From a bacterium (GTDB lineage Bacteria; UBP7; UBA6624; JBBIMK01): 32,000 nucleotides of DNA. The DNA lies in the NCBI GenBank assembly GCA_037444445.1, contig JBBIMK010000008.1, forward strand, positions 37,497 to 69,496, given 5' to 3'. A program made the translations under genes and the position numbers. A model generated the notes under the pieces. The model worked only from the letters and a program-made list of their open reading frames with translations, ran no database searches and was not told the DNA's origin. Below are positions 2,128 to 24,443 of this stretch, piece after piece (position 1 is the first letter of the stretch; each line of letters opens with the position of its first letter).

Positions 2128-2142
2128 TTCTATACTATCTAT

Positions 2143-2171: not shown

Positions 2172-2188
2172 TTTTGCTCCCGGGTGGC

Positions 2189-2217: not shown

Positions 2218-2246
2218 ACAGAATCAAGTAATGGAGGTGAAGTGGA

Positions 2247-2642: not shown

Positions 2643-2741
2643 ATCGCGCTCAGATATAAAATCTTCGGGACGTCTTTTGAACATTCCCTGACGCTGGTCC
2701 TCATTCCTGATTTCCTAACGGGTGAAAGGATATAATTAAGA

Positions 2742-3806: not shown

Positions 3807-4034
3807 GCCGGGACTGGGGGGGACACCCTGCCACCTGTGCCAAGCACCTTGATGGCTTCAACGATTTATGCACGGCAGAAATTGAAAAGCCTAATTACAA
3901 GCGGCCAGATTATCTATTTCCCTAAAAATCCTTTATGTAAAAAACCGGAATATGTATGCTTTACCCTGGAAAAGTTACTTACCAAGATTTTTGTTACCGG
4001 GTAAGAGAAAGGCGGGTTTTTATTTATGCGTATA

Positions 4035-4062
4035 TTGACAAGGACGGAGCAGGTGGTATAAT
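4035..4062 (+). promoter_or_regulatory. Near-consensus sigma70 promoter with extended -10 (TTGACA-16-TGgTATAAT) and an A/T-rich UP-like tract
   Basis: TTGACA at 4035-4040 and TATAAT at 4057-4062, preceded by TGG (the TGn extended -10). The upstream sequence is GGTTTTTATTTATGCGTATA. It points into a 540-nt tract with no convincing CDS ahead of cusC. Confidence 0.6.
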
Positions 4063-4455
4063 AAGATAGGATGAGCGCACAAAGAAAGGTTGCACTATTT
4101 TTCATCCTTAGCGTTGGGATGTCGTGGATAGGGGTAATGAATTGTTCCTCTACCAGGCTCGAATCTCACCATTCGGGAATGCCCATACCTGCCTCTTCAG
4201 TGCCCTGCCCGAAGTGCAGCCCAACCCAATTGCCTGTTCTTCACATTCTTACCTGCGTTCATCCCAATGCTTCCGTTTTCTTCCCCACTTTTGAGTCAAC
4301 GAGAGCTTTCCAGCCTGCACTGCTCTCTACGCTGAGTGATTTCGTCCATTCCCCGGCAGTATGGCATTCACCGAGTCCAGCAGGTTTTCATCTAAAACCG
4401 CCGAATCAAGTTCCACTTTATCTGTTAAACCTCTCTATTTTATCCTGATTCACTA

Positions 4456-4521
4456 CCCTGATTTCCCCGCATAATTAATCAGGGGACCCTTACAGCCTTC
4501 TCCTAAAAATACCCTGTAAGG
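4456..4521 (+). promoter_or_regulatory. Two adjacent 8-bp inverted repeats in the cusC leader (candidate operator or RNA structure)
   Basis: IR1 is CCCTGATT (4456-4463) / AATCAGGG (4477-4484) with a 13-nt loop. IR2 is CCTTACAG (4488-4495) / CTGTAAGG (4514-4521) with an 18-nt loop. The 3' arm of IR2 overlaps an AAGGAGG. TACCCTG recurs at 4454 and 4510. Confidence 0.4.
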
Positions 4522-4605
4522 AGGTGGTGAATTCTGGAACGAAGGCTCTCACACTTTCTACTTTATTCTTATAGAAAATATACAGCAAGGCTATCGGACT
4601 GGCTG

Positions 4606-5934
4606 ATGGAAAATGCGGGCAATGGATACAGGTTTGCCCGATATAAAAAAGACTGGATACCCATCCTTCTTCTTCTCTTCTGGAGTGGAATCGGATGGGC
4701 GGAGAATCCTGCCATTACACCCATAGAAGCGTTTGTCCGGGAGGCGCCGGAGAAGAACCCGGAAATTCAGGCACTCACTTATCAGTGGGAAGCGATGAAG
4801 GCACGGATTTCTCCCGCGAAAACCCTGCCTGACCCTACCATTGGCATCCGTCTGATGAATATGGGAAACCGCTTGAGCCTCGGGAAGGATATGAACTCTA
4901 TGGTGGGAATCTCTTTCTCACAGATGGTGCCGTATGCGGGCAAACTCCCCCTGATGGGCAAGATTATGGAAGAAGAAGCCAACCAAATGTTTTATATGCT
5001 CCAGGAGAAAAGGTGGATGCTCACCGCGGAAGTTAAAAAAACCTACTACTCTATCTACCACACCGACCGGATGCTGGAAATTCTTCAGGAGAATAAAACC
5101 ATCCTGGAGAATATGGAGAAGTCAATGGAAGCGATGTATCAAGTTGGGGAAGCGCTCCAGCAGGATGTCCTGAAGGCCCAGGTGTCGATTTCTAAGCTTC
5201 TGGAGCAGATGCTGGACCTCCGGAGGCAGAGAAAGGAGTTAGAGGCACGGATGAACCGTCTTCTGGGAAGAAGCGTCACGGCGCCCATCGGAAATCTCCA
5301 GGTGTCTGAGGAGATTTCCCTGCCTTACACGCTGGAGGACTTCAGAGAACTGGCGCTGAAATATTCGCCCACCCTGAGAGTGGAGGAAAAGGGAATCTCC
5401 AGGGCGGAGTATCAAGTGAAACTTGCGGAAAGGGAGTTCAAGCCGGACGCCATGTTCACATACTCTCGTTTCGCTCGTGGAAACTTTGGTCCCGCCTGGG
5501 AAGCCATGATGGAAATCACCGTGCCGTTATACAAGGAGAAAAAGCAGGCTTTTCAACTGATAGAAGCCCGGCAAAAGAAAGAGCAGGCAGAGCAGGCGCT
5601 TCAAGGGAAGAAAAACGAAATTCTCCAGGGGCTGGATGAAATGTTCGCCGCTCTTCAAACCAATGAGGAAATCTATCATCTCCTCGTGGATGGAATCATC
5701 CCACAGGCGGAACTCACTTTTCGGGCATCTATGTCCGCTTATCAAGTGGGAAAGGTGGATTTCCTCACCACCCTGGATAGTCTGATGACTCTTTACGATA
5801 TGAAGATGCGCCTTCACATGACCCTGGAGATGTTTCATAAAGACCTGTCGGATGTGGAGGCAATGATTGGAAAATCCTTAGAGATTCATTCTGGAGGTGA
5901 AACTCATGGAATCAAAACGACTCAAGAAAACTAA
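4606..5934 (+). CDS. cusC: Outer-membrane efflux protein, TolC/OMF family (CusC-like)
   Basis: 442-aa ORF with a hydrophobic N-terminal signal-like segment (WIPILLLLFWSGIGWA). Its long heptad-rich helical repeats are typical of outer-membrane factors. It overlaps the next gene (cusB-like) and is followed by cusA. It has no lipobox Cys. Confidence 0.8.
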   Translation: MENAGNGYRFARYKKDWIPILLLLFWSGIGWAENPAITPIEAFVREAPEKNPEIQALTYQWEAMKARISPAKTLPDPTIGIRLMNMGNRLSLGKDMNSMVGISFSQMVPYAGKLPLMGKIMEEEANQMFYMLQEKRWMLTAEVKKTYYSIYHTDRMLEILQENKTILENMEKSMEAMYQVGEALQQDVLKAQVSISKLLEQMLDLRRQRKELEARMNRLLGRSVTAPIGNLQVSEEISLPYTLEDFRELALKYSPTLRVEEKGISRAEYQVKLAEREFKPDAMFTYSRFARGNFGPAWEAMMEITVPLYKEKKQAFQLIEARQKKEQAEQALQGKKNEILQGLDEMFAALQTNEEIYHLLVDGIIPQAELTFRASMSAYQVGKVDFLTTLDSLMTLYDMKMRLHMTLEMFHKDLSDVEAMIGKSLEIHSGGETHGIKTTQEN

Positions 5935-7330
5935 CTGGTTTATCGGGGCGGGGTTGATACTCACCCTTGTGGGGGGATACACTGCCCATCAGCAAGGCTG
6001 GCTGACCCTGCCTTTCTTTTCCCCAGCTATTACCGCACAACCTATGGAAGGGATGAGCGGAATGGAGATGGGGAAATCAAAAGAGGAGCATGCGGGAATG
6101 GCCGGGATGGAAGGTATGGAGGAAATGGAGGAAGAGGTAGCGCCCAAACGCATTATGATTGACCCGGAAATGCAGCAGATTATCGGCGTCAGAATCCAGA
6201 AGGCCGGATATATGCCCCTCGTGAAAGAAATTCGGACGGTGGGACGAGTGGAATATGACGAAACCCGACTGAAAGCGGTTACAGTTCGGGTGATGGGCTA
6301 CATTACCAAACTTCTTGTGGATTACACAGGGAAAGAGGTAGAAGAAGGCGAACCACTTTTTACCTTTTATTCTCCTGAGCTTGTTTCTGCGCAGCAGGAA
6401 TATCTTCTGGCGTTAAAAGGGGCGAACACTCTTTCCGGTTCCTCCTATTCGGAAATCAGCCAGGGGAGCAAAACCCTGCTGGAATCTGCAAGAAAGCGTC
6501 TTCTCCTCTGGAACTTCACTGAGGAACAAATTCAATCTCTGGAAAATCGTGGAGAGCCAGAGATTGAGTCCTATGTCTATTCCCCGGTTTCTGGGACCGT
6601 GGTAGAAAAGATGGCTCTACAAGGCAAGCAGGTGATGCCCGGGGAAGATTTATACAAAATTGCAGACCTCTCTCAAGTCTGGGTTATTGCCGACCTGTAT
6701 GAGGAGGATGCTCCCCTATTGCGAGTTGGCCAGCATGCTTCCATTCAACTCACCTATTACCCTGGCAAAGCCTTCCACGGCTCTGTGGATTACATCTATC
6801 CCTATTTAGACGAGAAAACGAGAACGATCCGGGTCCGCTTCGCCTTTCGAAACCAGCGAGAAAATGCCCGTGGCGTGAGGGAGGAAACCCGGCACCTGGA
6901 ACACGAAGGAATGGAAGGGATGGAAATGCCTGGAATGCCCGGCATGAATCACACACAGCACCAGGCTCCAAATTCAACCTCTGAAAATTCTTCCGGATGG
7001 CTTCTGAAACCCGGCATGTTCACCAATGTGACAGTGAATGTGAATCTCGGGCAGTATCTTGCGATTCCGGAGGACTCTGTCATAGACACGGGCTTACGTC
7101 AGGTCGTTTTCGTGGACCTGGGGAATGGACATTTCGAGCCCCGGAATGTGGTTCTCGGGCATCGGGTGAACGGCTACTACGCCGTTCTCTCAGGCTTGAA
7201 GCCAGGAGAGCCTATTGTGACCAGCGCCAACTTCCTGCTGGATGCAGAGAGCAAAATCCGCACTGCGATGCCTGCGATGCCGGGAATGGATATGAAAGGG
7301 ATGAAGATGCCCGGACATGCAGGACATTAG
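5906..7330 (+). CDS. cusB: Efflux RND periplasmic adaptor (membrane fusion protein), CusB-like with three Met-rich tracts
   Basis: The adaptor core is recognisable (PLFTFYSPELVSAQQEYL, SPVSGTVVEKM, LYKIADLSQVWVIADLYE, LKPGMFTNVTV, IPEDSVIDTGLRQVVFV). It also has an N-terminal membrane anchor and MxxM-type tracts. I prefer the ATG at 5906 because GGAGG lies 8 nt upstream. The longest ORF starts at the GTG at 5897. Confidence 0.85.
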   Translation: MESKRLKKTNWFIGAGLILTLVGGYTAHQQGWLTLPFFSPAITAQPMEGMSGMEMGKSKEEHAGMAGMEGMEEMEEEVAPKRIMIDPEMQQIIGVRIQKAGYMPLVKEIRTVGRVEYDETRLKAVTVRVMGYITKLLVDYTGKEVEEGEPLFTFYSPELVSAQQEYLLALKGANTLSGSSYSEISQGSKTLLESARKRLLLWNFTEEQIQSLENRGEPEIESYVYSPVSGTVVEKMALQGKQVMPGEDLYKIADLSQVWVIADLYEEDAPLLRVGQHASIQLTYYPGKAFHGSVDYIYPYLDEKTRTIRVRFAFRNQRENARGVREETRHLEHEGMEGMEMPGMPGMNHTQHQAPNSTSENSSGWLLKPGMFTNVTVNVNLGQYLAIPEDSVIDTGLRQVVFVDLGNGHFEPRNVVLGHRVNGYYAVLSGLKPGEPIVTSANFLLDAESKIRTAMPAMPGMDMKGMKMPGHAGH

Positions 7331-7345
7331 AGGTGAAGGCTGGCT

Positions 7346-10300
7346 ATGATTGAACGACTAATAGACTGGTCTGCACGGAATAAATTCCTCGTTCTTCTCG
7401 CCACCTTCTTTGCCATTCTCGGAGGTATCTGGGCGATTAAGAACACTCCGCTGGATGCCATCCCCGACCTCTCCGATGTTCAGGTCATCATCTACACCGA
7501 ATGGATGGGAAGAAATCCCAGAATCATAGAGGACCAGATTACCTATCCCATTTCCACCACTATGCTCTCTGCGCCGAAAGTGAAGGCGGTTCGGGGCATT
7601 TCTGCCTTCGGCTTCTCCTTCATCTATGTCATCTTTCAGGATGGAACGGACATCTACTGGGCGAGGACTCGTGTTCTGGAATATCTGGAAAAAATCAAAG
7701 GGCGTCTCCCGCCCGGCATCACGCCAATCCTCTCCCCGGATGCCACGGGAGTGGGCTGGGTTTATATTTATGCCCTCGCAGATAAAACCGGTCAGAACGA
7801 CCTGGCACAACTTCGGACCATCCAGGACTGGTATCTGAAGTACTATCTGGAAAGCCTGCCTGATGTGGCAGAGGTGGGCACCTTTGGAGGTTTTGTTCGG
7901 GAATATCAGGTGGAAGTTGACCCGAATAAACTTCTTGCCTTCGGCATCCCGTTGAAGATGGTGATGGATGGCATCCGAATGAGCAATCTGGAGGTGGGAG
8001 GTGGAGCCATTGAACTCGCCCAGACGGAATATATGGTGCGAGGGATAGGATATGTGCAAAAAGTGGAGGACCTGAAAAATATCCCTCTGGGCACCAATAT
8101 GATGGGCACGCCGATTTATCTCAAGGATGTGGCGAGAGTGACCCTGGGACCCGATATGAGGAGAGGAGCGGCGGACCTGAATGGAGAGGGCGATGTGGTG
8201 GGAGGCATCGTTGTGATGCGGTATGGAAAAAACGCCCTGCAGGTCATTAACCGGGTGAAGGTGGCGATAGAAGAGTTTCAGAAAACCCGACTCCCCCCCG
8301 GTGTTGAAATCATCCCCGTCTACGACCGTTCCAAACTCATTCTACAATCCATTGCTACCCTTCGCCGAACCCTGATTGAAGAGTCCATCATCGTGATTCT
8401 CGTGTGTCTCATCTTTCTCTTCAGCCTGAGAAGTTCCGGCGTGGTCATCGTCACTCTACCCATTGCCGTGATTCTTTCCTTCATCCCGATGATGTATCTA
8501 CGGCTGACCTCCAACATTATGTCGCTGGGCGGGATTGCCATCGCCATCGGAGCCATGGTTGATGCGGCTATCGTGATGATTGAAAATGTCCACAAGCGGC
8601 TGGAGCATTTTGCACTGGAACATCCTGACTGGGCTCTGACATCAGAGGGTAGAGCCCAGCGAAGTCAAATCCTGATTCACGCCATGCAGGAAGTGGGAAA
8701 ACCCCTCTTCTATTCCCTTCTGGTTATCACGGTCTCCTTCCTCCCGGTATTCACCTTAGAATATCAGGAGGGGAGGCTTTTCAAGCCATTAGCCTTCACG
8801 AAAACCTTCTCCATGTTTTTTGCCTCCTTTCTTTCCATCACCCTGGTGCCTGCCATCATGGGACTATTTATTGAGAAGAAGGTCATCCCGGAGAAGAGAA
8901 ATCCCATCAGCCGATTTCTTATCAGTCTGTATAATCCTGTTGCCCGTTTTGCACTGCGCTGGCGGTTCATCACCATCACCCTCGGTCTTATGGCAACTTT
9001 TCTCGCTTACCCTGCCTATAAAAAACTGGGGAGTGAATTTATGCCACCTCTCTATGAGGGTACCCTTCTATATATGCCAATGACCACACCGGGGATTTCT
9101 ATCTACGAATCCCGGCGGGTTCTGCAAATACAGGATAAACTCCTGAAGCAATTCCCTGAGGTTGACCAGGTGCTGGGGAAAGTGGGGAGAGCCACCACAC
9201 CCACGGACCCTGCTCCCCTGCCCATGGTAGAAACCGTAGTCTCTCTCAAACCTGAACACGAATGGAGGAAAGGGCTGACCTGGGAAAAACTCTTTGACGA
9301 GATGGATAAAGAAATTCAAATCCCCGGATTCGTGAATGTGATGACCATGCCCATCAAAAATCGGGTGGATATGATCACCACGGGGATACGAACACCCGTA
9401 GGAGTGAAGGTCTTCGGGCCGAAACTGGAGGAGGTTCAGGAGATAGCGGAAGAAATTGAACGCATCATTCCACAGGTGGAAGGCACGAGAAGCGCCATTG
9501 CCGAGCGCTCTTTAGGCGGGTTTTACTTGAACATCACCCCCAGGCGGGAAGCTCTGGCTCGCTACGAACTTTCCATTATGGATGTCCAGGATGTGATAGA
9601 AATGGCAATCGGTGGAACTGTCATCTCCACCACGATTGAGGGCCGAGAACGCTACCCCATCAATATCCGGTATCCGAGGGAACTTCGGCTCTCTCCAGCC
9701 CTCCTGAAAAGGGTATTGATTCAAACGCCTATGGGCTACTCCATCCCGATTTCGCAGGTGGCGGATATAGAACTCACTCAGGGTCCGGATATGATACGAA
9801 GTGAGCGGGGACAACTCACTGGCACAGTTTATGTTGATGTGGCTGGCCGGGACATTGGCTCCTATGTGGCGGAAGCCAAAAAACTGGTGGAAGAAAAAAT
9901 CAAACTCCCTCAGGGTTATTCCATCCTCTGGAGCGGGCAATACGAGTATATGCAGAGAGTTACAGAAAAGTTAAAATATATGATTCCCCTTACCCTTTTC
10001 ATCATCTTCCTGCTGATGTATCTCAACTTCGGCTCCGTGGGGAAGACTCTCGTAGTGATGCTTTCCATTCCCTTCGCTCTCACCGGGAGTATGCTGGGAA
10101 TATATTTGATGAATTATAATCTCAGCGTGGCGGTGTGGGTGGGAATCATTGCTCTCGCCGGCGTTGCCGCTGAAACCGGCGTGGTGATGCTGGTGTATAT
10201 TGATGAAGCCTATGAACGATACAAAAAACAGGGGATGATGCGCACCCGCCAGGACCTCTCTGATGCCATCATTGAGGGAGCAGTGCAAAGGGTTCGCCCC

Positions 10301-10513
10301 AAGATGATGACCGTAATGGCTGTCATGATGGGGCTGATTCCCATCCTGTGGAGCCACGGAGCAGGTGCGGATGTGATGCGGAGAATCGCCATGCCGATGA
10401 TTGGCGGTATGGTCACTTCTACCATTCTCACTCTCTTCATCATTCCTTCCATCTTTCACATCTGGAAATCTTTTGAACTCCCTAAACAGAAGCAAACTGG
10501 AGGTGAATCCTGA
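7346..10513 (+). CDS. cusA: Heavy-metal (Cu/Ag) efflux RND inner-membrane pump, CusA family
   Basis: 1055 aa with 12-TM RND architecture and strong resemblance throughout to CusA/SilA (MIERLIDWSARNKFLV..., GVGWVYIYAL, AIGAMVDAAIVMIENVHK). The motifs LLYMP, PLPMVET and VDMITTG correspond, from my memory of E. coli CusA, to the Met573/Met623/Met672 metal-binding triad. Confidence 0.95.
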   Translation: MIERLIDWSARNKFLVLLATFFAILGGIWAIKNTPLDAIPDLSDVQVIIYTEWMGRNPRIIEDQITYPISTTMLSAPKVKAVRGISAFGFSFIYVIFQDGTDIYWARTRVLEYLEKIKGRLPPGITPILSPDATGVGWVYIYALADKTGQNDLAQLRTIQDWYLKYYLESLPDVAEVGTFGGFVREYQVEVDPNKLLAFGIPLKMVMDGIRMSNLEVGGGAIELAQTEYMVRGIGYVQKVEDLKNIPLGTNMMGTPIYLKDVARVTLGPDMRRGAADLNGEGDVVGGIVVMRYGKNALQVINRVKVAIEEFQKTRLPPGVEIIPVYDRSKLILQSIATLRRTLIEESIIVILVCLIFLFSLRSSGVVIVTLPIAVILSFIPMMYLRLTSNIMSLGGIAIAIGAMVDAAIVMIENVHKRLEHFALEHPDWALTSEGRAQRSQILIHAMQEVGKPLFYSLLVITVSFLPVFTLEYQEGRLFKPLAFTKTFSMFFASFLSITLVPAIMGLFIEKKVIPEKRNPISRFLISLYNPVARFALRWRFITITLGLMATFLAYPAYKKLGSEFMPPLYEGTLLYMPMTTPGISIYESRRVLQIQDKLLKQFPEVDQVLGKVGRATTPTDPAPLPMVETVVSLKPEHEWRKGLTWEKLFDEMDKEIQIPGFVNVMTMPIKNRVDMITTGIRTPVGVKVFGPKLEEVQEIAEEIERIIPQVEGTRSAIAERSLGGFYLNITPRREALARYELSIMDVQDVIEMAIGGTVISTTIEGRERYPINIRYPRELRLSPALLKRVLIQTPMGYSIPISQVADIELTQGPDMIRSERGQLTGTVYVDVAGRDIGSYVAEAKKLVEEKIKLPQGYSILWSGQYEYMQRVTEKLKYMIPLTLFIIFLLMYLNFGSVGKTLVVMLSIPFALTGSMLGIYLMNYNLSVAVWVGIIALAGVAAETGVVMLVYIDEAYERYKKQGMMRTRQDLSDAIIEGAVQRVRPKMMTVMAVMMGLIPILWSHGAGADVMRRIAMPMIGGMVTSTILTLFIIPSIFHIWKSFELPKQKQTGGES

Positions 10514-10746
10514 TGAAATTTTTTGACCCTGTTTGCAACGTTTTCCTGGACACGCTGGACGAAGAGTTGCAGGCCCCTCACGGCAACCACATTCACTACT
10601 TCTGCTCTCCCACCTGCCGGAAAATCTATGAGGAAGCACTGGAATACGAGGAGACCATCCGAAATCCACTGGAGTTCCATGCCGGTGGCAGGGAAAAGGA
10701 GCCATACCTTTTCATCAAGAGGGTAGATACAGGGTATGAGGCGTAG
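10513..10746 (+). CDS. Small YHS/TRASH-like protein (degenerate motif DPVCN...HYFCSPTC)
   Basis: 77-aa ORF whose ATG overlaps the cusA stop (TGATG). Its pattern, DPVC-x23-YFCSxxC-xxxY, matches the YHS domain consensus (DPVCGM...YYFCSxxC...F), but the Gly-Met after the first Cys is missing. It has no signal peptide. Confidence 0.6.
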   Translation: MKFFDPVCNVFLDTLDEELQAPHGNHIHYFCSPTCRKIYEEALEYEETIRNPLEFHAGGREKEPYLFIKRVDTGYEA

Positions 10747-10779
10747 AAGAAAAAACTGAACACCTGGAGGTGAGAAAAT

Positions 10780-11268
10780 ATGAAACTTGTATGGGCGGTC
10801 ATTCGGGAAAATAGACTACGAGAAGTTCAAAAAGCCCTGCAAAAAGAAGGCTTTACCGGGGCAACCGTAGTCCATGTTTCCGGTATGGGGGAAGAAGATT
10901 CTCATCCTCCCCTCACCCTTTTTCCCCACATCAAAATGGAAATCATCACTTCGGATAACCTGGCAGAAAAAGCAGTGGAAACGATTATGAATGCTGCCTG
11001 GACGGGCTTGCCAGGAGACGGAGGGATTGCCATCTTACCGGTGGAGAAGGTCTGGAAAATCCGACATAAGGAACGACTCATCACTCTTTTGGAAAAAGTG
11101 ATTGACCCGGTTTGCAAAATGAAGATAGAGAAAATGAAAGCAGCGGGTAAGACAGAGTTTGCAGGAACCAGTTACTACTTCTGTTCTGAAATATGCCTGT
11201 TAAAATTCCAGGAGTCTCCGGAAAAATTTCTCCGGGCAAGCAAGAGCTCTAAAGTAAAGGAGGAATAA
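10780..11268 (+). CDS. PII (GlnB/GlnK)-like domain fused to a C-terminal YHS domain
   Basis: Residues 1-105 align by eye with PII (MKLVWAVIRENRLREVQKALQKEGFTGATVVHVSGMG...IKMEIITSD...AEKAVETIMNAAWTGLPGDGGIAILPVEKVWKIR). The T-loop is shortened and has no Tyr51 equivalent. The C-terminus, IDPVCKMKIEK...TSYYFCSEICLLKFQESPEKF, is a YHS domain. A strong SD (GGAGGTGA) is present. Confidence 0.8.
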   Translation: MKLVWAVIRENRLREVQKALQKEGFTGATVVHVSGMGEEDSHPPLTLFPHIKMEIITSDNLAEKAVETIMNAAWTGLPGDGGIAILPVEKVWKIRHKERLITLLEKVIDPVCKMKIEKMKAAGKTEFAGTSYYFCSEICLLKFQESPEKFLRASKSSKVKEE

Positions 11269-11270
11269 AT

Positions 11271-11564
11271 ATGAAATTGAATCCGGCAGGATTCGCAAGC
11301 GCTCTGGGGATAACCTCAGCCATCCTTTACTTTGTGTGCGGCATCCTTGCCGCGGTCACTCCTCAGTTTCTCCTCTACATTTTCAAGACCTGGTTCCACG
11401 GGATGAATCTGGATGCACTCGTCCCTGCTGACGGACACATTTTCAATCTGACTCTGTTCATCATCGGGCTTATCACCTTCACGGCTACCGGCTGGGGCAG
11501 TGGGTGGTTGGTGGCAATTATTTACAATTTGTGGCAAAAGAAAAGCCCGGAGAAAGGAGAGTGA
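11271..11564 (+). CDS. Small integral membrane protein (2-3 TM), function unknown
   Basis: 97-aa ORF starting 2 nt after the previous stop, with an SD (GGAGGA). Hydrophobic segments: ITSAILYFVCGILAAV and LTLFIIGLITFTATGWGSGWLVAIIY. Confidence 0.6.
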   Translation: MKLNPAGFASALGITSAILYFVCGILAAVTPQFLLYIFKTWFHGMNLDALVPADGHIFNLTLFIIGLITFTATGWGSGWLVAIIYNLWQKKSPEKGE

Positions 11565-11569
11565 TAGAG

Positions 11570-11779
11570 ATGGTAATGGAAATTGACCCCGTGTGCGGTA
11601 TGAGGGTGGATACACGGATTCCTGCTGCTAAATCTGAGCATGAAGGGATTACTTATTTCTTCTGCTCCGTTGGGTGCAAGGGCATCTTTGACCAGGACCC
11701 CGACAAATACAGCCGACTATACTGGAAGAAAAGAGGGATGGATAAACCTGAATCTCCGGAGGTGGAGACTGATGGTTGA
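11570..11779 (+). CDS. YHS domain protein (canonical DPVCGM...YFFCSxGC)
   Basis: MVMEIDPVCGMRVDTRIPAAKSEHEGITYFFCSVGCKGIFDQDPDKY. I chose the ATG at 11570 because the SD AAAGGAGAG lies about 9 nt upstream. The longer ORF from 11504 overlaps the preceding gene. Confidence 0.8.
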   Translation: MVMEIDPVCGMRVDTRIPAAKSEHEGITYFFCSVGCKGIFDQDPDKYSRLYWKKRGMDKPESPEVETDG

Positions 11780-11987
11780 GAAGGACCCGGTATGCGGGAT
11801 GCCGGTAGATACAAAACGGGCAGGCAGTAGCCTTTCCTTTCAGTATAACGGAAGGACCTACTACTTTTGCTCTCACTATTGCCGGGAGCATTTTGAAGCG
11901 GACCCGGAACGATATTACCGGGGAAGGCAGACAGAGATGATGGGCCCACATAAAGAATTCAGGGAAAAAGGAGGTGAAAATGAATGA
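11772..11987 (+). CDS. YHS domain protein (second tandem copy)
   Basis: MVEKDPVCGMPVDTKRAGSSLSFQYNGRTYYFCSHYCREHFEADPERYY. The ATG at 11772 is preceded by GGAGGTGGAG and overlaps the previous gene by 8 nt (ATGGTTGA). Confidence 0.8.
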   Translation: MVEKDPVCGMPVDTKRAGSSLSFQYNGRTYYFCSHYCREHFEADPERYYRGRQTEMMGPHKEFREKGGENE

Positions 11988-12481
11988 AGGGCCGAAATTC
12001 TCTTCACTGGATTCTGGCACTGGCGTTTACAGGGCTTTTTCTCGGTGTGGCAGACGATTCTTCCTCTACGCCTCATGATGAGGGGATGATGGGCGGGATG
12101 ATGCCTATGATGCAGATGTGCCACCAGATGATGTCCCGACAGATGTCGGGAATGGGCGGCGGTATGCATCATCCTATGATGGACATGATGGGGCATGAAC
12201 CGCAACCCATGACCCCCGAGGAGCGGGAAATCGCTAAAATGATGGCGGATGCAGAGGTGAAAGAAGCCCAGCTGCACCGAATGCTTCTGGAAGAGAATGT
12301 GAATCCGGATGCCCTGAAGGGAAAGATACGAGAGATTCATGACCTTCAGGTGGAAATCCAGTTCAGGGAAATCATGACCGCTCGTGCAAAAGCATCGGCT
12401 CAGAAACCTTCCGAAAAGGGAGAAAGCAAGAGTGAGCACGAGATGCATCACATGGGCGGCATGGGCAGGATGGGGAAATAA
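11984..12481 (+). CDS. Met/His-rich periplasmic protein with a Spy/CpxP/ZraP-like helical domain
   Basis: The signal peptide is WILALAFTGLFLGVA. A tract of about 45 aa follows, containing about 17 Met plus His (EGMMGGMMPMMQMCHQMMSRQMSGMGGGMHHPMMDMMGH). Next comes a helical region like periplasmic stress/metal-sensor chaperones (MTPEEREIAKMMADAEVKEAQLHRMLLEENVNPDALKGKIREIHDLQVEIQ). The tail is HEMHHMGGMGRMGK. The start overlaps the previous stop (ATGA). Confidence 0.75.
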   Translation: MKGRNSLHWILALAFTGLFLGVADDSSSTPHDEGMMGGMMPMMQMCHQMMSRQMSGMGGGMHHPMMDMMGHEPQPMTPEEREIAKMMADAEVKEAQLHRMLLEENVNPDALKGKIREIHDLQVEIQFREIMTARAKASAQKPSEKGESKSEHEMHHMGGMGRMGK

Positions 12482-12525
12482 CGGAGGGTGAAGAGGAGGA
12501 ATTGCCCCCTTCCATCAGGAATCGC

Positions 12526-12556
12526 GGGGGGTCCTCTACCTGCTCCGGGACCCCCC
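12526..12556 (+). terminator. GC-rich hairpin in the only sizeable intergenic gap of the module (possible attenuator or weak terminator)
   Basis: GGGGGGTCC (12526-12534) pairs with GGACCCCCC (12548-12556), giving a 9-bp stem and a 13-nt loop. No U-tract follows (CCGATTCCACTTT), so it is not a classical intrinsic terminator. Confidence 0.3.
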
Positions 12557-12583
12557 CCGATTCCACTTTAAGGAGGAATGCAT

Positions 12584-13270
12584 ATGCCTACATGCGCTGT
12601 GTGCTTGATGAAAGTCTCACGCGAGGTTAAATTTCGCACAGAAATTAAGAAGCGAACCTACTATTTTTGCAGTTCCCGCTGTCTGATGCAATTTCAGAAA
12701 ACTCCGGAAAAATATTCTCCTGTGCATATACGAACACCGGCATTTGTGGGAATTCCTTCCCGGGTTCATCTCAGCCAATCCGCCTTTACAGCATTGATTT
12801 TATCCGTGGCGGAGATATTCAAAAAAGAAGCCATGGGCTACCTTCTGGGAAATTGCAAGGGCGAAGTGGTGGAGATAGACCATGCGATACCCTTTCAAAC
12901 GGGTAAAAGAGGTTATACTTACAGTGCAGTTTCTCTCCGGCGGCTGGAGTGGGTTAGAGACCTGACAGAGCGCATCCATCCAGGATTGCAGTGGATTGGA
13001 GATTATCATTCTCACCCTCAGCATGGAAATGTCCTGCGTCTTCACCTTCCCAGCATTCTGGATGTGGAAGATATGGAACCCGGGTATGTTTATTTAGTCA
13101 TTTCAGTGAACGAAGTACAAGTTTGCTTACCCTGGCGCACGAGCAGGAAGAGGGGAACTCTCGCTGGAACTCTGGGAAAATTGCGGATGGAGATTGCGGG
13201 CTACTGTCTTGATAAAGAGCAAAATTTGCGCCGTTTAGAGGTGGATGCCCCCTGGTTGAAAAGAAAATAA
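12584..13270 (+). CDS. TRASH/YHS-type zinc-ribbon domain fused to a JAB/MPN+ (JAMM) metalloprotease domain
   Basis: The N-terminus MPTCAVCLMKV...RTYYFCSSRCLMQFQKTPEKY follows C-x2-C-x21-C-x3-C. The C-terminal domain has the JAMM signature elements: KKEAMGYLLG (Glu), IGDYHSHPQ (HxH) and PSILD (S-x2-D). Spacing between HxH and S is 12 residues, against the usual 7. The ATG at 12584 lies 7 nt after AAGGAGG. The ORF also opens at 12578. Confidence 0.75.
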   Translation: MPTCAVCLMKVSREVKFRTEIKKRTYYFCSSRCLMQFQKTPEKYSPVHIRTPAFVGIPSRVHLSQSAFTALILSVAEIFKKEAMGYLLGNCKGEVVEIDHAIPFQTGKRGYTYSAVSLRRLEWVRDLTERIHPGLQWIGDYHSHPQHGNVLRLHLPSILDVEDMEPGYVYLVISVNEVQVCLPWRTSRKRGTLAGTLGKLRMEIAGYCLDKEQNLRRLEVDAPWLKRK

Positions 13271-13359
13271 AAAAAGCCCTATTTCTTTATGCTTTTTTCA
13301 CGGTAGTCCAGCCAGCACTTCTATGGGCGCACGGGGCAGGGCATCTCTCCACAGAAGAA

Positions 13360-15384
13360 ATGGCTTCGGGACTGGTGGTCGTTGGGCGCTATCAGTTTCT
13401 GCTGGAAAAAGAAGCCACGCCACTCACCCGGGGAAAGACATCATACATTACCGTTCGCATCTTTGATACTTATGCGAAGGCTCTGCTGAAGGGGAAGCGA
13501 GTGCTTATGGCTATCAAACTTCCTCAAGCAGCGATTCCCCCCGGCCAAATCCCGGTACCCACGCTTATACCACCTTCTTCTCAGCACTCTTCTACAGGAA
13601 TAGCAGTGGACAGTCCTGTTTCCTGGACCCCAGAGGGCAACCCGGATGTATCCGACCTACTGCCCACAGAAGAAACTGCGGAGGGAGGGCATTATCGGAT
13701 AAAATTCACTCCTGAAACTTCCGGGGTTCATCTATTGAAACTGGCACTGTTTGTGGACGATGCATCCTCACCTCTTCTAATAGAATTCCCTCTCCAGGTA
13801 AAAAACCCGGCGTTCACGCTCACACGAATCGTATTTTTTACGCTTCTCCTGCTATTCCTCACCGTTATTTCTCTGAGCGTTTTCTCTCTCCGCAGAAGAT
13901 ATGGCTCCTCCGATTCACAGTCTTTGAATCTACTGGAAATTCCATGGTTAAACCGGTTTATTCGCTGGAGATATTTTCAAACAGTTTTTCAAGTTCCCCT
14001 GCTGTTTTTGTTGATTCTCATCATCTTTGCAGGTTTATATGATGCACCTGATGGGAGCAAAAATTTCGCCACGATTCTCACCTGGACAGTGTGGTGGGCG
14101 GGGATTATCTTTACCTTCGTTCTACTGGGAAGAGTCTGGTGTTTTATGTGTCCTGTGGGAGGGCTGGCGGATTGGACGGGGAAATGGGCTCAGCCCCGTC
14201 GCCTTCTACCCAAACTCCTTCGTTCTTTGTGGATTCCCACCGTTCTATTCCTTTTTCTTACCTGGCTGGATGGAGCGGTGGGCATCGTAAACAATCCGCG
14301 CTTGACCGCCTGGGTCCTGATGTCTATTGCCGGGCTTGCAATTCTCATTTCTCTGCTGTTTGCCCGTAGGACTTTTTGCCGGTATATCTGCCCGATTGGA
14401 GGAATGATTGGGTTATATTCTATGTTTTCCCCGGTAGAGTTGAGGGTGAAATCTCATGAAATCTGTCGTTCACACAACCCGAAAACCTGCTATCTGGGTT
14501 CTCCAGATGGGGAAGGATGCCCGATGTTTGAATATCCAGCGGTGATGAATCGCAACAATTACTGTAACTTTTGCGGGGAGTGCGTCAAAACCTGCTCGCC
14601 GAACAATCTTGTCTTGAGATTTCGCCCGTTCGGGACAGACCTTTTTACTCTGGTAAATCCCCGTCTGGATGAGGCATTTTTTGCCCTTACATTAACAGGA
14701 GTAAGCCTGGTGGCGGTAGGGCATATGATTGCTCCCTGGCATTCCTGGATGCTGGGGCTTTCCAGGCTCATCGGATTGGGAAGGCTGGGTATTACCAGCG
14801 AGAAAACCTTAACTGTCATCGGTTTCACCATCACCCTGTTCAGTATATCTGTGGTGATTTTGCCTGCTCTGGTTTACGGTGCAGTGCTCTGGCTTCAAAA
14901 GTTTTCTGTGGGGCAACCCATTCTGGCCGACCGAGGGAACGACGGCAGGGCAGAAAAAGTGGCTCCACATCAAATTTTCAGCCGTTTTGCTTACGCCTTC
15001 ATTCCTGTGGGATTATCCATGCATCTGGCTCACAATATCCAGCATTTATTAACTGAAGGAGCCGTTATCATCCCCGCCACACAAAAATTCCTGAACAACT
15101 ATACTTTCTTTAATCTCGGCATTTCCAACTGGCAGGCTTATTCTTTCCCTCATTCCCCCTATATCACCTGGCTTCAAATCACACTCGTCCTCATATTTTT
15201 GCCCTTTTCTCTGCGAATACTTGATAGGGTGTGGCATCAGTATTTTTCTCCATCAGCCCGATTTCAGTGGGCAATGGCTCCCTTACTCCTTTTGGTTCTC
15301 GTTCTGGTGTGGCTGAATCTCTTCCTTATCCAGCAAGATATGTCTGCCCGGCACACAACCCTGTTGACAGCCATCGCCCGATGA
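13360..15384 (+). CDS. Membrane polyferredoxin (NapH/MauN/CcoG-like 4Fe-4S protein) with an N-terminal periplasmic beta-rich domain
   Basis: It has multiple TM helices, two CxxCP motifs at helix ends (VWCFMCPVGGLADW and TFCRYICPIGGMIG) and a ferredoxin motif (CNFCGECVKTCSP). A further Cys group is CRSHNPKTCYLGSPDGEGCP. The coordinates are from the first ATG. The in-frame upstream sequence (from 13252) encodes a signal-peptide-like KKIKKALFLYAFFTVVQPALLWAHG, so the real start is probably upstream and non-canonical. Confidence 0.75.
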   Translation: MASGLVVVGRYQFLLEKEATPLTRGKTSYITVRIFDTYAKALLKGKRVLMAIKLPQAAIPPGQIPVPTLIPPSSQHSSTGIAVDSPVSWTPEGNPDVSDLLPTEETAEGGHYRIKFTPETSGVHLLKLALFVDDASSPLLIEFPLQVKNPAFTLTRIVFFTLLLLFLTVISLSVFSLRRRYGSSDSQSLNLLEIPWLNRFIRWRYFQTVFQVPLLFLLILIIFAGLYDAPDGSKNFATILTWTVWWAGIIFTFVLLGRVWCFMCPVGGLADWTGKWAQPRRLLPKLLRSLWIPTVLFLFLTWLDGAVGIVNNPRLTAWVLMSIAGLAILISLLFARRTFCRYICPIGGMIGLYSMFSPVELRVKSHEICRSHNPKTCYLGSPDGEGCPMFEYPAVMNRNNYCNFCGECVKTCSPNNLVLRFRPFGTDLFTLVNPRLDEAFFALTLTGVSLVAVGHMIAPWHSWMLGLSRLIGLGRLGITSEKTLTVIGFTITLFSISVVILPALVYGAVLWLQKFSVGQPILADRGNDGRAEKVAPHQIFSRFAYAFIPVGLSMHLAHNIQHLLTEGAVIIPATQKFLNNYTFFNLGISNWQAYSFPHSPYITWLQITLVLIFLPFSLRILDRVWHQYFSPSARFQWAMAPLLLLVLVLVWLNLFLIQQDMSARHTTLLTAIAR

Positions 15385-15439
15385 ATAAACTGGAAATGAA
15401 TGCTTCAAAGGAAATACAGCAATGGAGAGGTGAGGTGAG

Positions 15440-15748
15440 ATGTGTAGATTCATCTGGACGGTAATTTTAGTGGTAACTCTGAGTTCAGCAGGGTTAGCCC
15501 ATACAGGAGAGAAACACGAGAAGTTGCAGGAGTCACCCCCATCTGCGGAAGTTACAACGCCAGAGAAAGAAATGAACCAGGGAGTGGAACACGAGATGAT
15601 GGAAGGAGCATCAGAAACCCGGCCTGCTCCTCAGGTGCCTTTGAATCCGGCGAGAGATGTGGTTTTGCTTGTCATATTCACCGCTGGTGGAATCTGGCTG
15701 GCGATTCGCAACTACCAGCATTTCTCTAAGGGGGCTGCTTCCCGATGA
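15440..15748 (+). CDS. Small exported/anchored protein (signal peptide, acidic His/Met-containing region, C-terminal TM)
   Basis: 102 aa with an SD (GAGGTGAGGTGAG). The N-terminal signal is FIWTVILVVTLSSAGLA followed by HTGEKHEK. The C-terminal TM is VVLLVIFTAGGIWLAI. The stop overlaps the cytochrome b start (ATGA). Confidence 0.55.
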   Translation: MCRFIWTVILVVTLSSAGLAHTGEKHEKLQESPPSAEVTTPEKEMNQGVEHEMMEGASETRPAPQVPLNPARDVVLLVIFTAGGIWLAIRNYQHFSKGAASR

Positions 15749-16740
15749 CCACCTGGCGAGAAAGATTCGGTCTTCACGCGCTGGCGTACCCGGTTCCATC
15801 ACACAGTCACCGATTAGACTATGCCCTCGGAGCTATCGCTCTCTCGGGCTTTCTGATTCTCATTCTCACGGGCATCTGGCTGGGGCTTTTATATCAGGTC
15901 GGTGCCACCAGTGCCTATGAAAGTGTGGAGGCTCTTCAGGGTCTGGACCGGTGGGTGCGAAACCTACATTACTGGTCCGCCCACTTCACCTATCTTACGG
16001 TGCTTCTTCATGTGGTTCGGGTAGGGATTACAGGGGCCTATCGCACTCCGAGAGAAGGAATCTGGTGGTTGGGAGTTTTTCTCCTCGCTACCGTCTCTGC
16101 TATATTCCTCACCGGAACCATCATCAAGTGGGACCAGGAAGGATATGAAGCCTACGCCCATCTGGAAGAAGGCTTCGCATACGCCGGACCTCTTGCCAAT
16201 TTCTTGAAAAGCAGATTTACTGGTTCTGTCGCATTTTCCTCTCTCTTCTTCACCCATACTTCCCTTCTCCCGATTTTAGTTCTTCTTCTGATTGCAGGAC
16301 ATTTACTTCTGATAAAAATCCACGGGATTTCTGAATTACCTGGCGAGACCTCTTCCACTGCACGCATTCCTTTTACGCAGGTTATGAAAACCATTTCCCT
16401 TTATACAGGTGGATTTTTTATTCTGCTGGTGATACTTGCCACTTTCCTCCCAGCCCCATTGGGGCCTAACTTCGTAGAAGGGTTTGAGGTTACTAAACCT
16501 CCGTGGCCCTTCCTCTGGATTTATGCCCTGGAGAACTGGCTTGGAATGATGGGTATGGTATGGGGACCTGCCCTGCTCTTCCTCGGATTATTGGCTATGC
16601 CACTGCTGGACCGGGGGAAAAATCGGCGAGCATGGATTACCCTATTCCTCCTTGTCCTTCTACTTCTGATTGCCCTTGGTTTATATGCTGCCCTCTCTGT
16701 TCCCGTTCCTCATCTGGAAATGCAAACAGGTGAATCCTGA
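15745..16740 (+). CDS. Cytochrome b (b6-type His spacing) with a fused subunit-IV-like C-terminal domain
   Basis: Helix B is NLHYWSAHFTYLTVLLH (H-x13-H). Helix D is FTHTSLLPILVLLLIAGH (H-x14-H, the b6/Firmicutes-type spacing). The C-terminal KPPWPFLWIYALENWLG occupies the position of the PEWY Qo motif. No Rieske or cytochrome c gene is adjacent. Confidence 0.8.
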   Translation: MTTWRERFGLHALAYPVPSHSHRLDYALGAIALSGFLILILTGIWLGLLYQVGATSAYESVEALQGLDRWVRNLHYWSAHFTYLTVLLHVVRVGITGAYRTPREGIWWLGVFLLATVSAIFLTGTIIKWDQEGYEAYAHLEEGFAYAGPLANFLKSRFTGSVAFSSLFFTHTSLLPILVLLLIAGHLLLIKIHGISELPGETSSTARIPFTQVMKTISLYTGGFFILLVILATFLPAPLGPNFVEGFEVTKPPWPFLWIYALENWLGMMGMVWGPALLFLGLLAMPLLDRGKNRRAWITLFLLVLLLLIALGLYAALSVPVPHLEMQTGES

Positions 16741-16799
16741 TGAAAGAAAACGAACCTAATGTGGAAGAAAACGAAAATCTTCAGAGGAGGTAGAGTGAA

Positions 16800-17258
16800 A
16801 TGTCACAGAAGAAAGGCTCAACCAGGGAAGCAGAGAAAGCCAGGTCTTTATCGCGAGTGATAGGGGTGACTGGTTTTCTCGCCCTGGGGCTTGGACTCTT
16901 TTTCACTGTCCGCCTATTTCTTACGGGGAAACCGGTGGAGATAAAAACCAATGGAGAAGCTCCACCTTACAGGCGAGTGGAGACACGCCCTGTTCTTCCC
17001 TCTTCTCTTTTCACTGGTGCTGTGGCAGAAGCCTATCAGGCTGCCCACGATATGCCCGATTTCATTGACCAGTTTTACTGCTACTGCCAGTGCAAGGAAT
17101 ATCACGGGCACAAAACTCTTCTTACCTGTTTTACTGATAAGCACGCCGCTAATTGCGACATTTGTTTATATCAAGCCCTCACTGCTGTCCAGATGAGCAA
17201 AGAAGGAAAGTCTGCGGATGCCATTCGCCATTTCTTCTCCTCCCGTTTCGCCCAGTAA
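16800..17258 (+). CDS. Membrane-anchored CYCxC-motif (PCYCGC-like) Cys/His-rich protein, putative metal-binding
   Basis: The N-terminal TM anchor is VIGVTGFLALGLGLFFTV. The extracytoplasmic domain contains FYCYCQCKEYHGHKTLLTCFTDKHAANCDICLYQAL. As I recall, this resembles the PCYCGC/CYCXC family of unknown function. The SD AGAGGAGG lies 8 nt upstream of the start. Confidence 0.7.
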   Translation: MSQKKGSTREAEKARSLSRVIGVTGFLALGLGLFFTVRLFLTGKPVEIKTNGEAPPYRRVETRPVLPSSLFTGAVAEAYQAAHDMPDFIDQFYCYCQCKEYHGHKTLLTCFTDKHAANCDICLYQALTAVQMSKEGKSADAIRHFFSSRFAQ

Positions 17259-17517
17259 ACCCGGTCCCTGACCCTGGCTCATAGTAATGGTTTCTAAGAA
17301 GATGGACAGCCACCCCTCTGGCTTCTAACTTGTTCAACAGGAAATATCACAGGATGAGTTGATGCGAAATCCTGTTTATGCCGTGACTTTTTAATGTGCT
17401 CTCAATTACTATTTTTAGTTTTCTGATTAGAGAAAGACTCCGCTGAGAAAATTTTATGGATGGGTGTTCTCTGACTTCGGCACCGCTGTTCCGGCGCAAG
17501 CCTTACCACCCTCACTT

Positions 17518-17967
17518 TCACCGGAATAAAACGGGGAGTTCAATGTAAGTGCCGGGAGGGATTCCAAAGGACCAAATTTGAGTGTTGGGAGCACCCGTAA
17601 AATACTGGCGAATCAAACAAATAGGCACAGCATGGGTGACGACGCAGATGGTGCCTTCCGGATTTTGTCGGAGGATACGCCATAGAGAAGACAGGACTCT
17701 TTTACGGATATGGCGGAAAGGTTCACCGTGTGGAGGTGAAAGGTGTTCCGGGTTTTCCCGCCAGCGTGCGAGCCAGTGAGAATAACGGCGTTGGACTTCT
17801 TCCTGGGTCAGCCCTTCCAGTTTGCCCTGATAAATTTCCCTTAACCCCGGAGCCAGGCGAATCGCCAGATGAAGCCTCTGTGAAATGTATTCTGCTGTTT
17901 CAACCGCTCTTTTAAGCGGGCTGGAATACAGACAGCGTATGGATTTTTTAGTGAGTTCCTCTGCCAT
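17518..17967 (-). CDS. Histidine phosphatase (phosphoglycerate-mutase-like) family protein; candidate glucosyl-3-phosphoglycerate phosphatase
   Basis: The ORF from the first ATG contains SSPLKRAVETAE, EGLTQEE and VVTHA. The catalytic N-terminal motif [29 protein letters not shown] is encoded in frame upstream (to about 18072) but without an ATG, GTG or TTG. The real CDS is therefore probably about 17518..18072. Confidence 0.75.
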   Translation of the reverse strand: MAEELTKKSIRCLYSSPLKRAVETAEYISQRLHLAIRLAPGLREIYQGKLEGLTQEEVQRRYSHWLARWRENPEHLSPPHGEPFRHIRKRVLSSLWRILRQNPEGTICVVTHAVPICLIRQYFTGAPNTQIWSFGIPPGTYIELPVLFR

Positions 17968-18088
17968 CAGATAGGCTTGTTGCCTTCCTTGTTCGGTGAG
18001 AGGGATGTCCGTTTGCCCCTGGAATCTCCTCTCACGGTTGTATTGGGTTTCTCCGTGCCGAACGAGGAGCAGTTTATTCGCTTTCCAC

Positions 18089-24436: not shown

Positions 24437-24443
24437 TCTCTAT

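Follow-up and report, generated by a model that had tools for sequence, protein, structure and literature searches.

The 32,000-nucleotide stretch analysed here (the window; positions 37,497 to 69,496 of contig JBBIMK010000008.1, assembly GCA_037444445.1) carries, between about 4.0 and 17.3 kb, a long same-strand gene array on the + strand in which genes for a tripartite efflux pump of the resistance–nodulation–division (RND) superfamily are followed by a block of 11 open reading frames (ORFs). On the evidence of its sequence, this locus is probably a Cu(I)/Ag(I) resistance operon in which a Cus-type RND pump has been extended by accessory proteins that would bind and sense cytoplasmic metal and reduce periplasmic Cu(II) for export. 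Three lineages keep a core of the accessory set together with cus genes. Because this core recurs in two related genomes, the locus is a real elaboration of a known resistance system and not a one-off. An initial annotation of the window had put the block after cusA at ten genes, one fewer than the ORF count gives. The pump and the block comprise the following genes.

4606..5934, + strand: outer-membrane factor (OMF), CusC-like (PF02321 OEP, 133 bits)
5897..7330, + strand: membrane-fusion protein (MFP), CusB-like (HlyD_D23, 252.6 bits; 27 Met, 12 His)
7346..10513, + strand: heavy-metal efflux (HME) RND permease, CusA-type (ACR_tran, 742.7 bits)
10513..10746, + strand: 77-residue TRASH-like protein (TRASH77), predicted cytoplasmic (C-x22-C-x3-C signature; start overlaps the cusA stop, TGATG)
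10780..11268, + strand: PII-like domain with a C-terminal YHS domain, PII–YHS (P-II, PF00543, 70.5 bits, residues 1–98; YHS, 56.4 bits, residues 107–152)
11271..11564, + strand: DUF5676 membrane protein with two transmembrane (TM) segments (PF18926, 65.9 bits)
11570..11779, + strand: stand-alone YHS protein, 69 residues (YHS69; YHS, 52.4 bits)
11772..11987, + strand: stand-alone YHS protein, 71 residues (YHS71; YHS, 51.0 bits)
11984..12481, + strand: Met/His-rich exported protein, 165 residues (26 Met, 11 His; signal-like N terminus; helical C-terminal half)
12578..13270, + strand: TRASH/YHS domain (residues 8–46) with a JAMM/MPN+ metalloprotease domain (67–180), TRASH–JAMM (YHS, 32.5 bits; Prok-JAB, 33.5 bits against a cut-off of 25)
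13267..15384, + strand: polytopic 4Fe-4S polyferredoxin of the NapH/NosR/CcoG superfamily, about 700 residues (two Fer4_5 matches; weak NapH/NosR matches; probable non-ATG start)
15440..15748, + strand: 102-residue protein (p102) with a signal/anchor, a His/Met/Glu-rich middle and a C-terminal TM segment (from hydropathy; overlaps the cytochrome b start, ATGA)
15745..16740, + strand: dihaem cytochrome b, b6/ExtP-like (Cytochrome_B, 65.1 bits)
16800..17258, + strand: membrane-anchored Cys-rich PCYCGC-family protein, predicted to face outside (PF13798, 45.8 bits)

Profile searches thus place the P-II, DUF5676, Prok-JAB, Fer4_5, cytochrome b and PCYCGC families proposed for the accessory proteins.

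A Cus-type pump

The OMF, MFP and RND permease are encoded together (4606–10513) and, judged by their sequences, form a pump of the Cus (Cu/Ag) type. Among solved structures, the permease is closest to Escherichia coli CusA (1156 bits, against 512 for the zinc pump ZneA), and the methionine triad M573, M623 and M672 is conserved, with LLYMP, APLPMVET and NRVDMITTG aligning to 3t51_A. Five of the six methionines of the proposed cytoplasmic route (equivalents of M391, M403, M410, M486 and M501) are also conserved in the alignment; the sixth, M1009, lies outside the printed alignment, and the permease sequence has PMIGGM there. The CusB-like protein has Met-rich stretches at its N terminus, internally and at its C terminus. 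The locus therefore shares with E. coli CusCFBA the OMF–MFP–RND trio, the methionine triad and transmembrane methionine ladder, and a Met-rich CusB. It differs from that system in its eleven extra downstream genes, in the lack of CusF and CusRS, and in filling the expected place of a periplasmic chaperone with an exported, Met-rich protein that is weakly Metal_resist-like. None of the window ORFs that we scanned encodes a P1B ATPase, a CopZ/HMA protein, CusF, a multicopper oxidase or a metal regulator (CusRS included), which agrees with the absences listed in the initial annotation.

That annotation also set the cytoplasmic YHS proteins against a pump that clears periplasmic metal. The contrast is a weak one, because a stepwise route for Cu(I) through CusA, starting in the cytoplasm and following the methionine ladder, is an accepted proposal (review PMC7558416). 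As the ladder is kept here, cytoplasmic chaperones serving the pump are plausible and pose no paradox.

Conservation of the accessory genes

The core set recurs beside HME-RND pumps in two further lineages, but the full form of the block does not. In the closest of these, a sister locus present in two NCBI assemblies (L001 and L002), CusA is 77% identical to that of the window and the gene order is cusC-cusB-cusA-YHS (68 residues)-Met-rich (183 residues)-TRASH/JAMM-polyferredoxin-PCYCGC; this locus encodes the sole close relative of TRASH–JAMM (65% identity). The third lineage (L166) has the next-closest polyferredoxin homologue (45% identity), and its order (1–8344) is cusC-cusB-DUF5676-NfeD/SDH serine protease-YHS (59 residues)-Met-rich (159 residues)-polyferredoxin-PCYCGC-cusA. 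Here the accessory genes lie within the pump operon itself, between cusB and cusA. These arrangements bear out the earlier view that the accessory genes belong with the pump. The view that they include a membrane redox unit is likewise borne out: the polyferredoxin and PCYCGC genes, sometimes with cytochrome b, recur beside cus genes in several metagenome-assembled genomes of Nitrospirota.

The polyferredoxin family is much wider than this, numbering at least 555 loci among the species representatives of GTDB, with hosts that include Nitrospinota, Nitrospirota, Methylomirabilota, Rokubacteria, Binatia and Desulfobacterales. For 80 of these loci we took a census of homologues of the window proteins within 10 kb. 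Our censuses used tblastn with the window proteins (E ≤ 1e-3) and so under-count divergent small proteins (the DUF5676 protein of L004, for example, was seen only in a precomputed Pfam table), and many of the contigs are short. PCYCGC was found at 43 of the 80 loci, cytochrome b at 13 and YHS at 12. A CusA-type gene in a full cusCBA set is present at four (L026, L037, L045 and L070), and two more (L038 and L050) have partial cus genes at a contig end. A YtkA-like gene stands directly 5' of cusC in L070, and L058 has a YHS gene and cytochrome b in one operon.

This distribution lends some weight to the idea that the locus is a modular metal-resistance island, in which independent copper-handling modules (a pump; chaperones; supply or reduction for cuproenzyme maturation) have come together through selection for co-inheritance and co-regulation, with no wiring to CusA. 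We regard this as a real possibility, albeit one that we doubt. Gene order varies among the three lineages and six genes are specific to the window; polyferredoxin and PCYCGC pairs occur mostly without cus genes, in L003 for example beside unrelated metabolic genes; CcoG-type proteins are known as oxidase-maturation factors, as are YtkA/CtaK-type proteins; and a hairpin and several gaps of 50–96 nt subdivide the block. Modules without a joint role would, however, leave the position of the L166 accessory genes between cusB and cusA hard to explain without shared expression and function. The TGATG and ATGA overlaps that couple the first genes to cusA, and the recurrence of the PII–YHS fusion and of post-cusA YHS and PII gene pairs in unrelated lineages, also argue against it.

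YHS and TRASH domain proteins

The initial annotation named five YHS/TRASH domains. Four of these score above the gathering cut-off of the Pfam YHS model (PF04945, 30.3 bits), at 56.4, 52.4, 51.0 and 32.5 bits. The fifth, at 10513–10746, does not: TRASH77 has no Pfam YHS match and scores below threshold with both zf-FCS (21.1 against 22.4 bits) and TRASH (14.9 against 27 bits), and we term it TRASH-like by its cysteine signature only. Across all six frames of the window the pattern C-x19-24-[FYHW][FY]C[SC]xxC occurs at exactly the five named sites, and it occurs in none of 200 shuffled sequences. Mutual identity among the five domains is merely 19–36%, which rejects a recent tandem duplication of YHS genes. 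YHS71 is the orthologue of the single post-cusA YHS gene of the sister locus (63–74% identity to L001 9152–9358).

None of the five proteins has a hydrophobic segment (the maximum 19-residue Kyte–Doolittle average is ≤1.39), so the cytoplasmic location earlier proposed from their lack of signal peptides is reasonable. The accompanying statement that YHS domains are normally found singly does not hold. Proteins with several YHS domains in tandem are common, and the top matches in an exhaustive HMMER search with PII–YHS over 1.84 billion cluster representatives carry two to five tandem YHS domains, among them a P1B ATPase with five.

A functional parallel for the small proteins is archaeal. CopM proteins are stand-alone TRASH proteins of 56–71 residues, encoded by genes that overlap and are co-transcribed with the gene for the CopA exporter, and are regarded as metallochaperones; TRASH also serves as the sensor domain of archaeal CopT (PMC3595675). 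The window resembles the copTMA and copMA clusters in encoding small stand-alone TRASH-type proteins beside a copper exporter. In those clusters the exporter is a P1B ATPase of an archaeon, whereas here it is an RND pump of a diderm bacterium, accompanied by three stand-alone copies and two fusions. One YHS domain, from an adenylyl cyclase, behaves as a probable copper sensor (PMC4626032).

An alternative is that the YHS/TRASH modules are structural zinc ribbons (zf-FCS-like) or iron modules and not copper sites, forming with the JAMM protease a maturation or quality-control set for membrane redox proteins; they would then act in protein–protein interaction, in assembly of the Fe–S/haem redox unit or in its protection against Cu(I). 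TRASH77 does match zf-FCS better than YHS, the TRASH fold is treble-clef-like with Pfam cross-matches to zf-FCS, DUF2116 and L24e, the set comes every time with a protease gene (JAMM or NfeD), and direct metal-binding data on YHS are sparse, a single experimental paper having been found. Yet YHS domains occur overwhelmingly on Cu/Ag P1B ATPases, SilP included, and the one YHS domain tested acted as a copper sensor (PMC4626032). A metagenome locus (L149) couples YHS and PII genes with an HMA/CopZ gene in the absence of a redox unit, and the sister locus retains a YHS gene directly 3' of cusA. We therefore consider non-copper modules a very unlikely explanation.

Two further observations concern these domains. 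In L149, an in-frame TGA takes the precise place of the first FCxxxC cysteine in the YHS ORF after cusA (8079–8231; YYF*ALGC); the product may thus be a YHS protein with selenocysteine and would fit the NCBIfam 'YHS domain-containing (seleno)protein' model. Adenylate/guanylate cyclase genes recur a few kilobases from polyferredoxin/PCYCGC modules (L001 15640–19023, L003 8743–10029, L005 16004–19522 and L058 18454–20142), a recurrence worth recording because the reported YHS copper sensor is itself an adenylyl cyclase.

A PII-like protein fused to a YHS domain

The PII–YHS gene starts 267 nt past the cusA stop. In an alignment with short-T-loop PII-like proteins, the T-loop of its PII-like domain is about 8 residues shorter than that of canonical-length PII proteins, and the B-loop reads TGLPGDGGI. 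We take both loops to be non-canonical relative to GlnB, with no Tyr51 and an altered PROSITE-type GDGK motif. The fusion is rare: a word-index search recovered the query itself alone, and the best 150 matches from the 1.84 billion cluster representatives include one further representative, P0124.

The two halves also recur as neighbours. We scanned metagenomes with a PII profile built from an alignment of short-T-loop PII-like proteins, from which the divergent P0124 was left out because it made the alignment too variable. Of 80 genes at the loci so obtained, about 12 lie directly 3' of cusA, and at four loci (L091, L096, L099 and L149) a YHS gene is followed immediately by the PII gene, L149 having the order cusCBA-YHS-PII-Met-rich-HMA. 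PCYCGC adjoins PII in four metagenome loci. As YHS and PII gene pairs recur, the PII–YHS protein of the window is the fused form of recurrent neighbours.

PII-NG proteins are already on record as linked to czc/HME-RND operons (Sant'Anna 2009, cited in PMC7726332), and the Geobacter member GSU2134 is co-induced with czc by cobalt (PMC7726332). By sequence, the HME-RND linkage of the PII-like domain matches the description of PII-NG proteins, with which it shares the PII fold, a short non-canonical T-loop and a gene beside an HME-RND pump; it is unlike them in bearing a C-terminal YHS domain. A metal-sensing regulator of the trimeric pump is a candidate role for this domain.

A putative membrane redox unit

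The polyferredoxin gene is longer than its first ATG suggests. An apparent 89-nt gap (13271–13359) is coding and in frame, reading IKKALFLYAFFTVVQPALLWA (…KKALFLYAFFTVVQPALLWA) followed by HGAGH, a signal peptide that is common to the sister polyferredoxin and most family members. The region of the signal peptide 5' of the first ATG (13252–13360) has no in-frame ATG, GTG or TTG. A conserved signal peptide lacking these codons points to a non-standard start codon that overlaps the JAMM gene, probably ATA at 13267 (overlapping the JAMM stop as ATAA) or CTG at 13252. Automatic gene calls shorten the protein to 674 residues.

In the numbering of the 674-residue ORF, the invariant motifs are C261xxC264P, C340xxxC344P and C402xxC405xxC408xxxC412; the two CxxCP Fer4_5 motifs and the CxxCxxCxxxC motif are on predicted cytoplasmic loops, and extra C-terminal helices carry an invariant HLxHNxxH...E. 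A fold search with the AlphaFold2 model (mean confidence, pLDDT, 85.7) showed that the exported N-terminal Ig-like domain resembles the Cu/Ag-binding protein CrdA of Helicobacter pylori, and PF13115 YtkA is precomputed for some homologues. One family member (P0229, 999 residues) has a complete cation diffusion facilitator (CDF) efflux transporter (PF01545 and PF16916) fused at its N terminus.

CcoG is a cupric reductase with two [4Fe-4S] clusters (PMC7558416). The polyferredoxin resembles CcoG/FixG in its polytopic architecture, its Fer4_5 CxxCP motifs, its CxxCxxCxxxC motif, its periplasmic Ig-like domain and its copper-homeostasis context. It differs in that the Ig-like domain is N-terminal and YtkA/CrdA-like instead of C-terminal, in its extra C-terminal helices, in its pairing with PCYCGC and in lying outside a ccoGHIS cluster. 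By analogy the protein would work like CcoG, although it stands outside the CcoG family.

The cytochrome b has H-x13-H and H-x14-H pairs and scores 108.9 bits with the ExtP model, against a cut-off of 290. No Pfam family matches p102, and a literature search on PCYCGC returned a lipoproteome survey only, with no functional literature. The cytochrome b is of a quinol-oxidising type. Judged from sequence, the most economical role of the polyferredoxin, cytochrome b and PCYCGC proteins would be the reduction of periplasmic Cu(II) and its hand-over as Cu(I).

The unit could instead work in the opposite direction or on another substrate, as an anaerobic Cu(I) oxidase or as a reductase for selenite/tellurite, Ag, Au or Hg, making the locus a broader thiophilic-metal system. 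The cytochrome b is closest to the ExtP model, which comes from selenite/tellurite operons; P0229 is fused to a transporter of divalent cations; and one YHS homologue may be a selenoprotein. The ExtP score is nevertheless far under its cut-off, the pump bears the Cu(I)/Ag(I) methionine triad with far lower similarity to ZneA-type pumps, and the Met-rich proteins and YtkA/CrdA-like domains point to Cu/Ag. Estimated redox potentials likewise favour menaquinol-driven Cu(II) reduction over Cu(I) oxidation to quinone. We give a different direction or substrate hardly any credence.

DUF5676, Met-rich and JAMM proteins

DUF5676 proteins are also encoded in the L166 cus operon and in a Nitrospinota metal island (L004); a literature search on the family returned nothing on function. 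Orthologues of the Met-rich protein occupy the same operon position in L001, L166 and L149. The protein had been assigned to the CpxP/Spy type, and this assignment is weak: its score with Metal_resist (PF13801) is 13.3 bits where the cut-off is 29.2, although three of four orthologues match at E ≤ 1, the best at 6e-4. Homology to the Metal_resist protein of L004 was rejected, as the two have no BLASTP similarity. From its composition the Met-rich protein is a candidate periplasmic Cu(I)/Ag(I) binder and may replace CusF.

In TRASH–JAMM the catalytic E...HxH...S..D set is intact (E83, H144-S-H146 and S159-x-x-D162), aligning to PDB 2kcq with a 5-residue insertion and also to 6fjv. A word-index search with the protein found one relative, P0009, with 65% identity and the same gene context, and the catalytic residues are kept in P0009/L001. 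In L166 a ClpP-like NfeD/SDH serine protease fills the slot that TRASH–JAMM has in the other two lineages.

Operon layout and flanking genes

Three further features bear on how the array may be expressed.

4035..4062, + strand: candidate operon promoter, sigma-70-like TTGACA-16-TATAAT, TG-extended (12/12 consensus match)
4071..4448, + strand: small Cys/His-containing ORF, 125 residues (hydrophobic TM-like or signal-like segment at residues 7–26)
12518..12564, + strand: intercistronic GC-rich hairpin of about 17 bp with no T-run (centroid structure), in the 96-nt gap between the Met-rich and TRASH–JAMM genes

The promoter-like site is the best scoring within 3800–18100 and is a candidate for the operon promoter. 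Its perfect extended sigma-70 consensus ends 8 nt 5' of the ATG of the 125-residue ORF, so the mRNA would be almost leaderless. A MerR/CueR-type promoter was rejected, given the 16-nt spacer and just one imperfect inverted repeat upstream. In the 540-nt region 5' of cusC, Rfam finds no riboswitch or known RNA, its matches in the window being five tRNAs alone. The 125-residue ORF is possibly the first gene of the operon, though the gene itself is uncertain: it matches no Pfam family and its BLASTP similarity to the first ORF of L001 is not significant, but in alignment it shares with the first ORFs of L166 and L001 a weak C-terminal pattern, …SP..PA.F….P.F..NLSLL.

The junctions quoted in the initial annotation are correct (TGATG at 10511–10515, a 2-nt gap at 11269–70, an 8-nt overlap at 11772–79 and ATGA at 11984–87). 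Its description of the block as tightly coupled holds for these junctions but not for the gaps of 33 nt (10747–10779), 96 nt (12482–12577), 51 nt (15385–15439) and 59 nt (16741–16799), and the stop/start overlaps point to translational coupling instead of co-translation with the pump. The hairpin has a counterpart in L001 (at about 9919–9963) with a 19-bp stem (z = −4.9), related arm sequences and no T-run. An intrinsic terminator was rejected, as the hairpin lacks a T-run and the terminator scan made no call; a role in the processing or stability of the mRNA, by which it would divide the operon into two expression units, is possible.

Other window genes encode trigger factor, five tRNAs, an ArsA-like ATPase, a histidine phosphatase, a GT2 glycosyltransferase fused to a universal-stress-protein domain (GT2+Usp), a met-zincin and the nuo operon. 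The tRNA cluster (1593–2127, − strand) lies between the trigger factor and ArsA-like ATPase genes. The nuo operon (22862–31994, − strand) comprises nuoA-B-C-D-H-I-J-K-L and one M/N-type subunit gene, with no E, F or G genes between D and H and, within the window, two antiporter-like subunits only. Synteny is kept at the GT2+Usp gene, which flanks the operon on the opposite strand both in the window (18089–19909, −) and in the sister locus (L001 13321–15081, −). The sister locus also has an HMA-P1B ATPase gene 6 kb downstream, whose place is taken in the window by a DUF4953 met-zincin.

A proposed mechanism

In the mechanism that we favour, the stand-alone YHS/TRASH proteins would act like archaeal CopM or bacterial CopZ, binding cytoplasmic Cu(I)/Ag(I) and passing it to the cytoplasmic entrance of the CusA methionine ladder or to a P1B ATPase encoded elsewhere. 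PII–YHS would be a trimeric metal-sensing regulator and may act on the trimeric pump. The polyferredoxin would serve as a CcoG-like cupric reductase, fed from the quinol pool by cytochrome b and assisted by PCYCGC and the Met-rich protein. Periplasmic Cu(II) would thereby be turned to Cu(I), the sole form that Cus exports, and then be passed to CusB/CusA. TRASH–JAMM could be a peptidase that responds to metal and acts in the processing or turnover of a component. These functional statements go further than domain content and conservation and are our inferences from sequence.

Several observations weigh against this mechanism. The sister locus, the closest relative, has no counterpart of six of the 11 genes (those for TRASH77, PII–YHS, DUF5676, YHS69, p102 and cytochrome b), so the core function does not depend on them; the saturation with YHS domains stressed in the initial annotation is accordingly true of the window but specific to its lineage. 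Most polyferredoxin and PCYCGC pairs lie away from cus genes, so the module may serve copper supply and not detoxification. The whole polyferredoxin chain has no PDB match at E ≤ 0.001 in a fold search, in which the Ig-like domain alone matches, and no CcoG-specific model (TIGR02745, Fer4_18 or FixG_C) matches it at E ≤ 0.01. The short T-loop makes a plug of the GlnK–AmtB style unlikely for the PII-like domain, and TRASH/zf-FCS folds can also be structural zinc ribbons. No ubiquitin-like, ThiS/MoaD or E1/E2-like partner for the JAMM protein is present among the scanned window ORFs or in the L001 gene table. Finally, a conserved hairpin divides the block and a regulator is absent, and a single transcript and its induction by metal are proposals only.

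Precedents and significance

Each module of the locus has a precedent: Cus pumps, PII-NG proteins beside HME-RND pumps, TRASH chaperones, CcoG-type reductases and the sil operon. In the last of these, on more than 2000 plasmids, silA is followed first by a DUF411 gene and then, at a distance of about 650 nt, by the YHS-like domain at the N terminus of SilP. Enterobacterial sil (silCFBA-DUF411-silP) thus resembles the window in having a Cus-type pump followed in the operon by a small redox-type accessory gene and a cytoplasmic YHS-like domain. There the domain is part of a P1B ATPase and the redox accessory is DUF411/CopG-like, whereas here the domains stand alone or are joined to PII and JAMM, no ATPase was found, and the redox accessories are the polyferredoxin, cytochrome b and PCYCGC proteins. 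The suggestion that the architecture is undescribed consequently needs narrowing. The PII-NG linkage, archaeal TRASH chaperones, the sil YHS-like domain and CcoG-type reductases are known; the conserved set and the fusions are what is left of it. We found no literature description of the set of YHS, Met-rich, protease, YtkA-polyferredoxin and PCYCGC genes inside cus operons, or of a PII–YHS or a TRASH–JAMM fusion. Their joint function is argued by arrangement, once by insertion between cusB and cusA and twice by domain fusion. If our inferences fail, the locus is an ordinary, though unusually crowded, metal-resistance operon.

The cell envelope is defended against Cu(I)/Ag(I) chiefly by Cus pumps, and the locus touches three questions about them: whether Cus draws its metal from the cytoplasm, what PII-like proteins do beside HME-RND pumps, and how periplasmic Cu(II) is reduced under anoxia. 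The PCYCGC and DUF5676 families gain a copper context from it. Together with its relatives it offers clonable candidates in the stand-alone YHS proteins, the PII–YHS fusion and the CcoG-like polyferredoxin with PCYCGC. At its most ambitious, the proposal is of a redox- and sensor-coupled class of Cus system in which a trimeric PII–YHS, sensing cytoplasmic Cu(I) by its YHS domains, docks on the trimeric CusA and gates the ladder entrance, quinol-driven reduction of periplasmic Cu(II) by a dedicated complex of polyferredoxin, cytochrome b and PCYCGC feeds the pump, and a copper-activated TRASH–JAMM protease resets the system. We think such a class unlikely on present evidence, but, if it exists, docking of PII–YHS on CusA would give PII-NG proteins a function.

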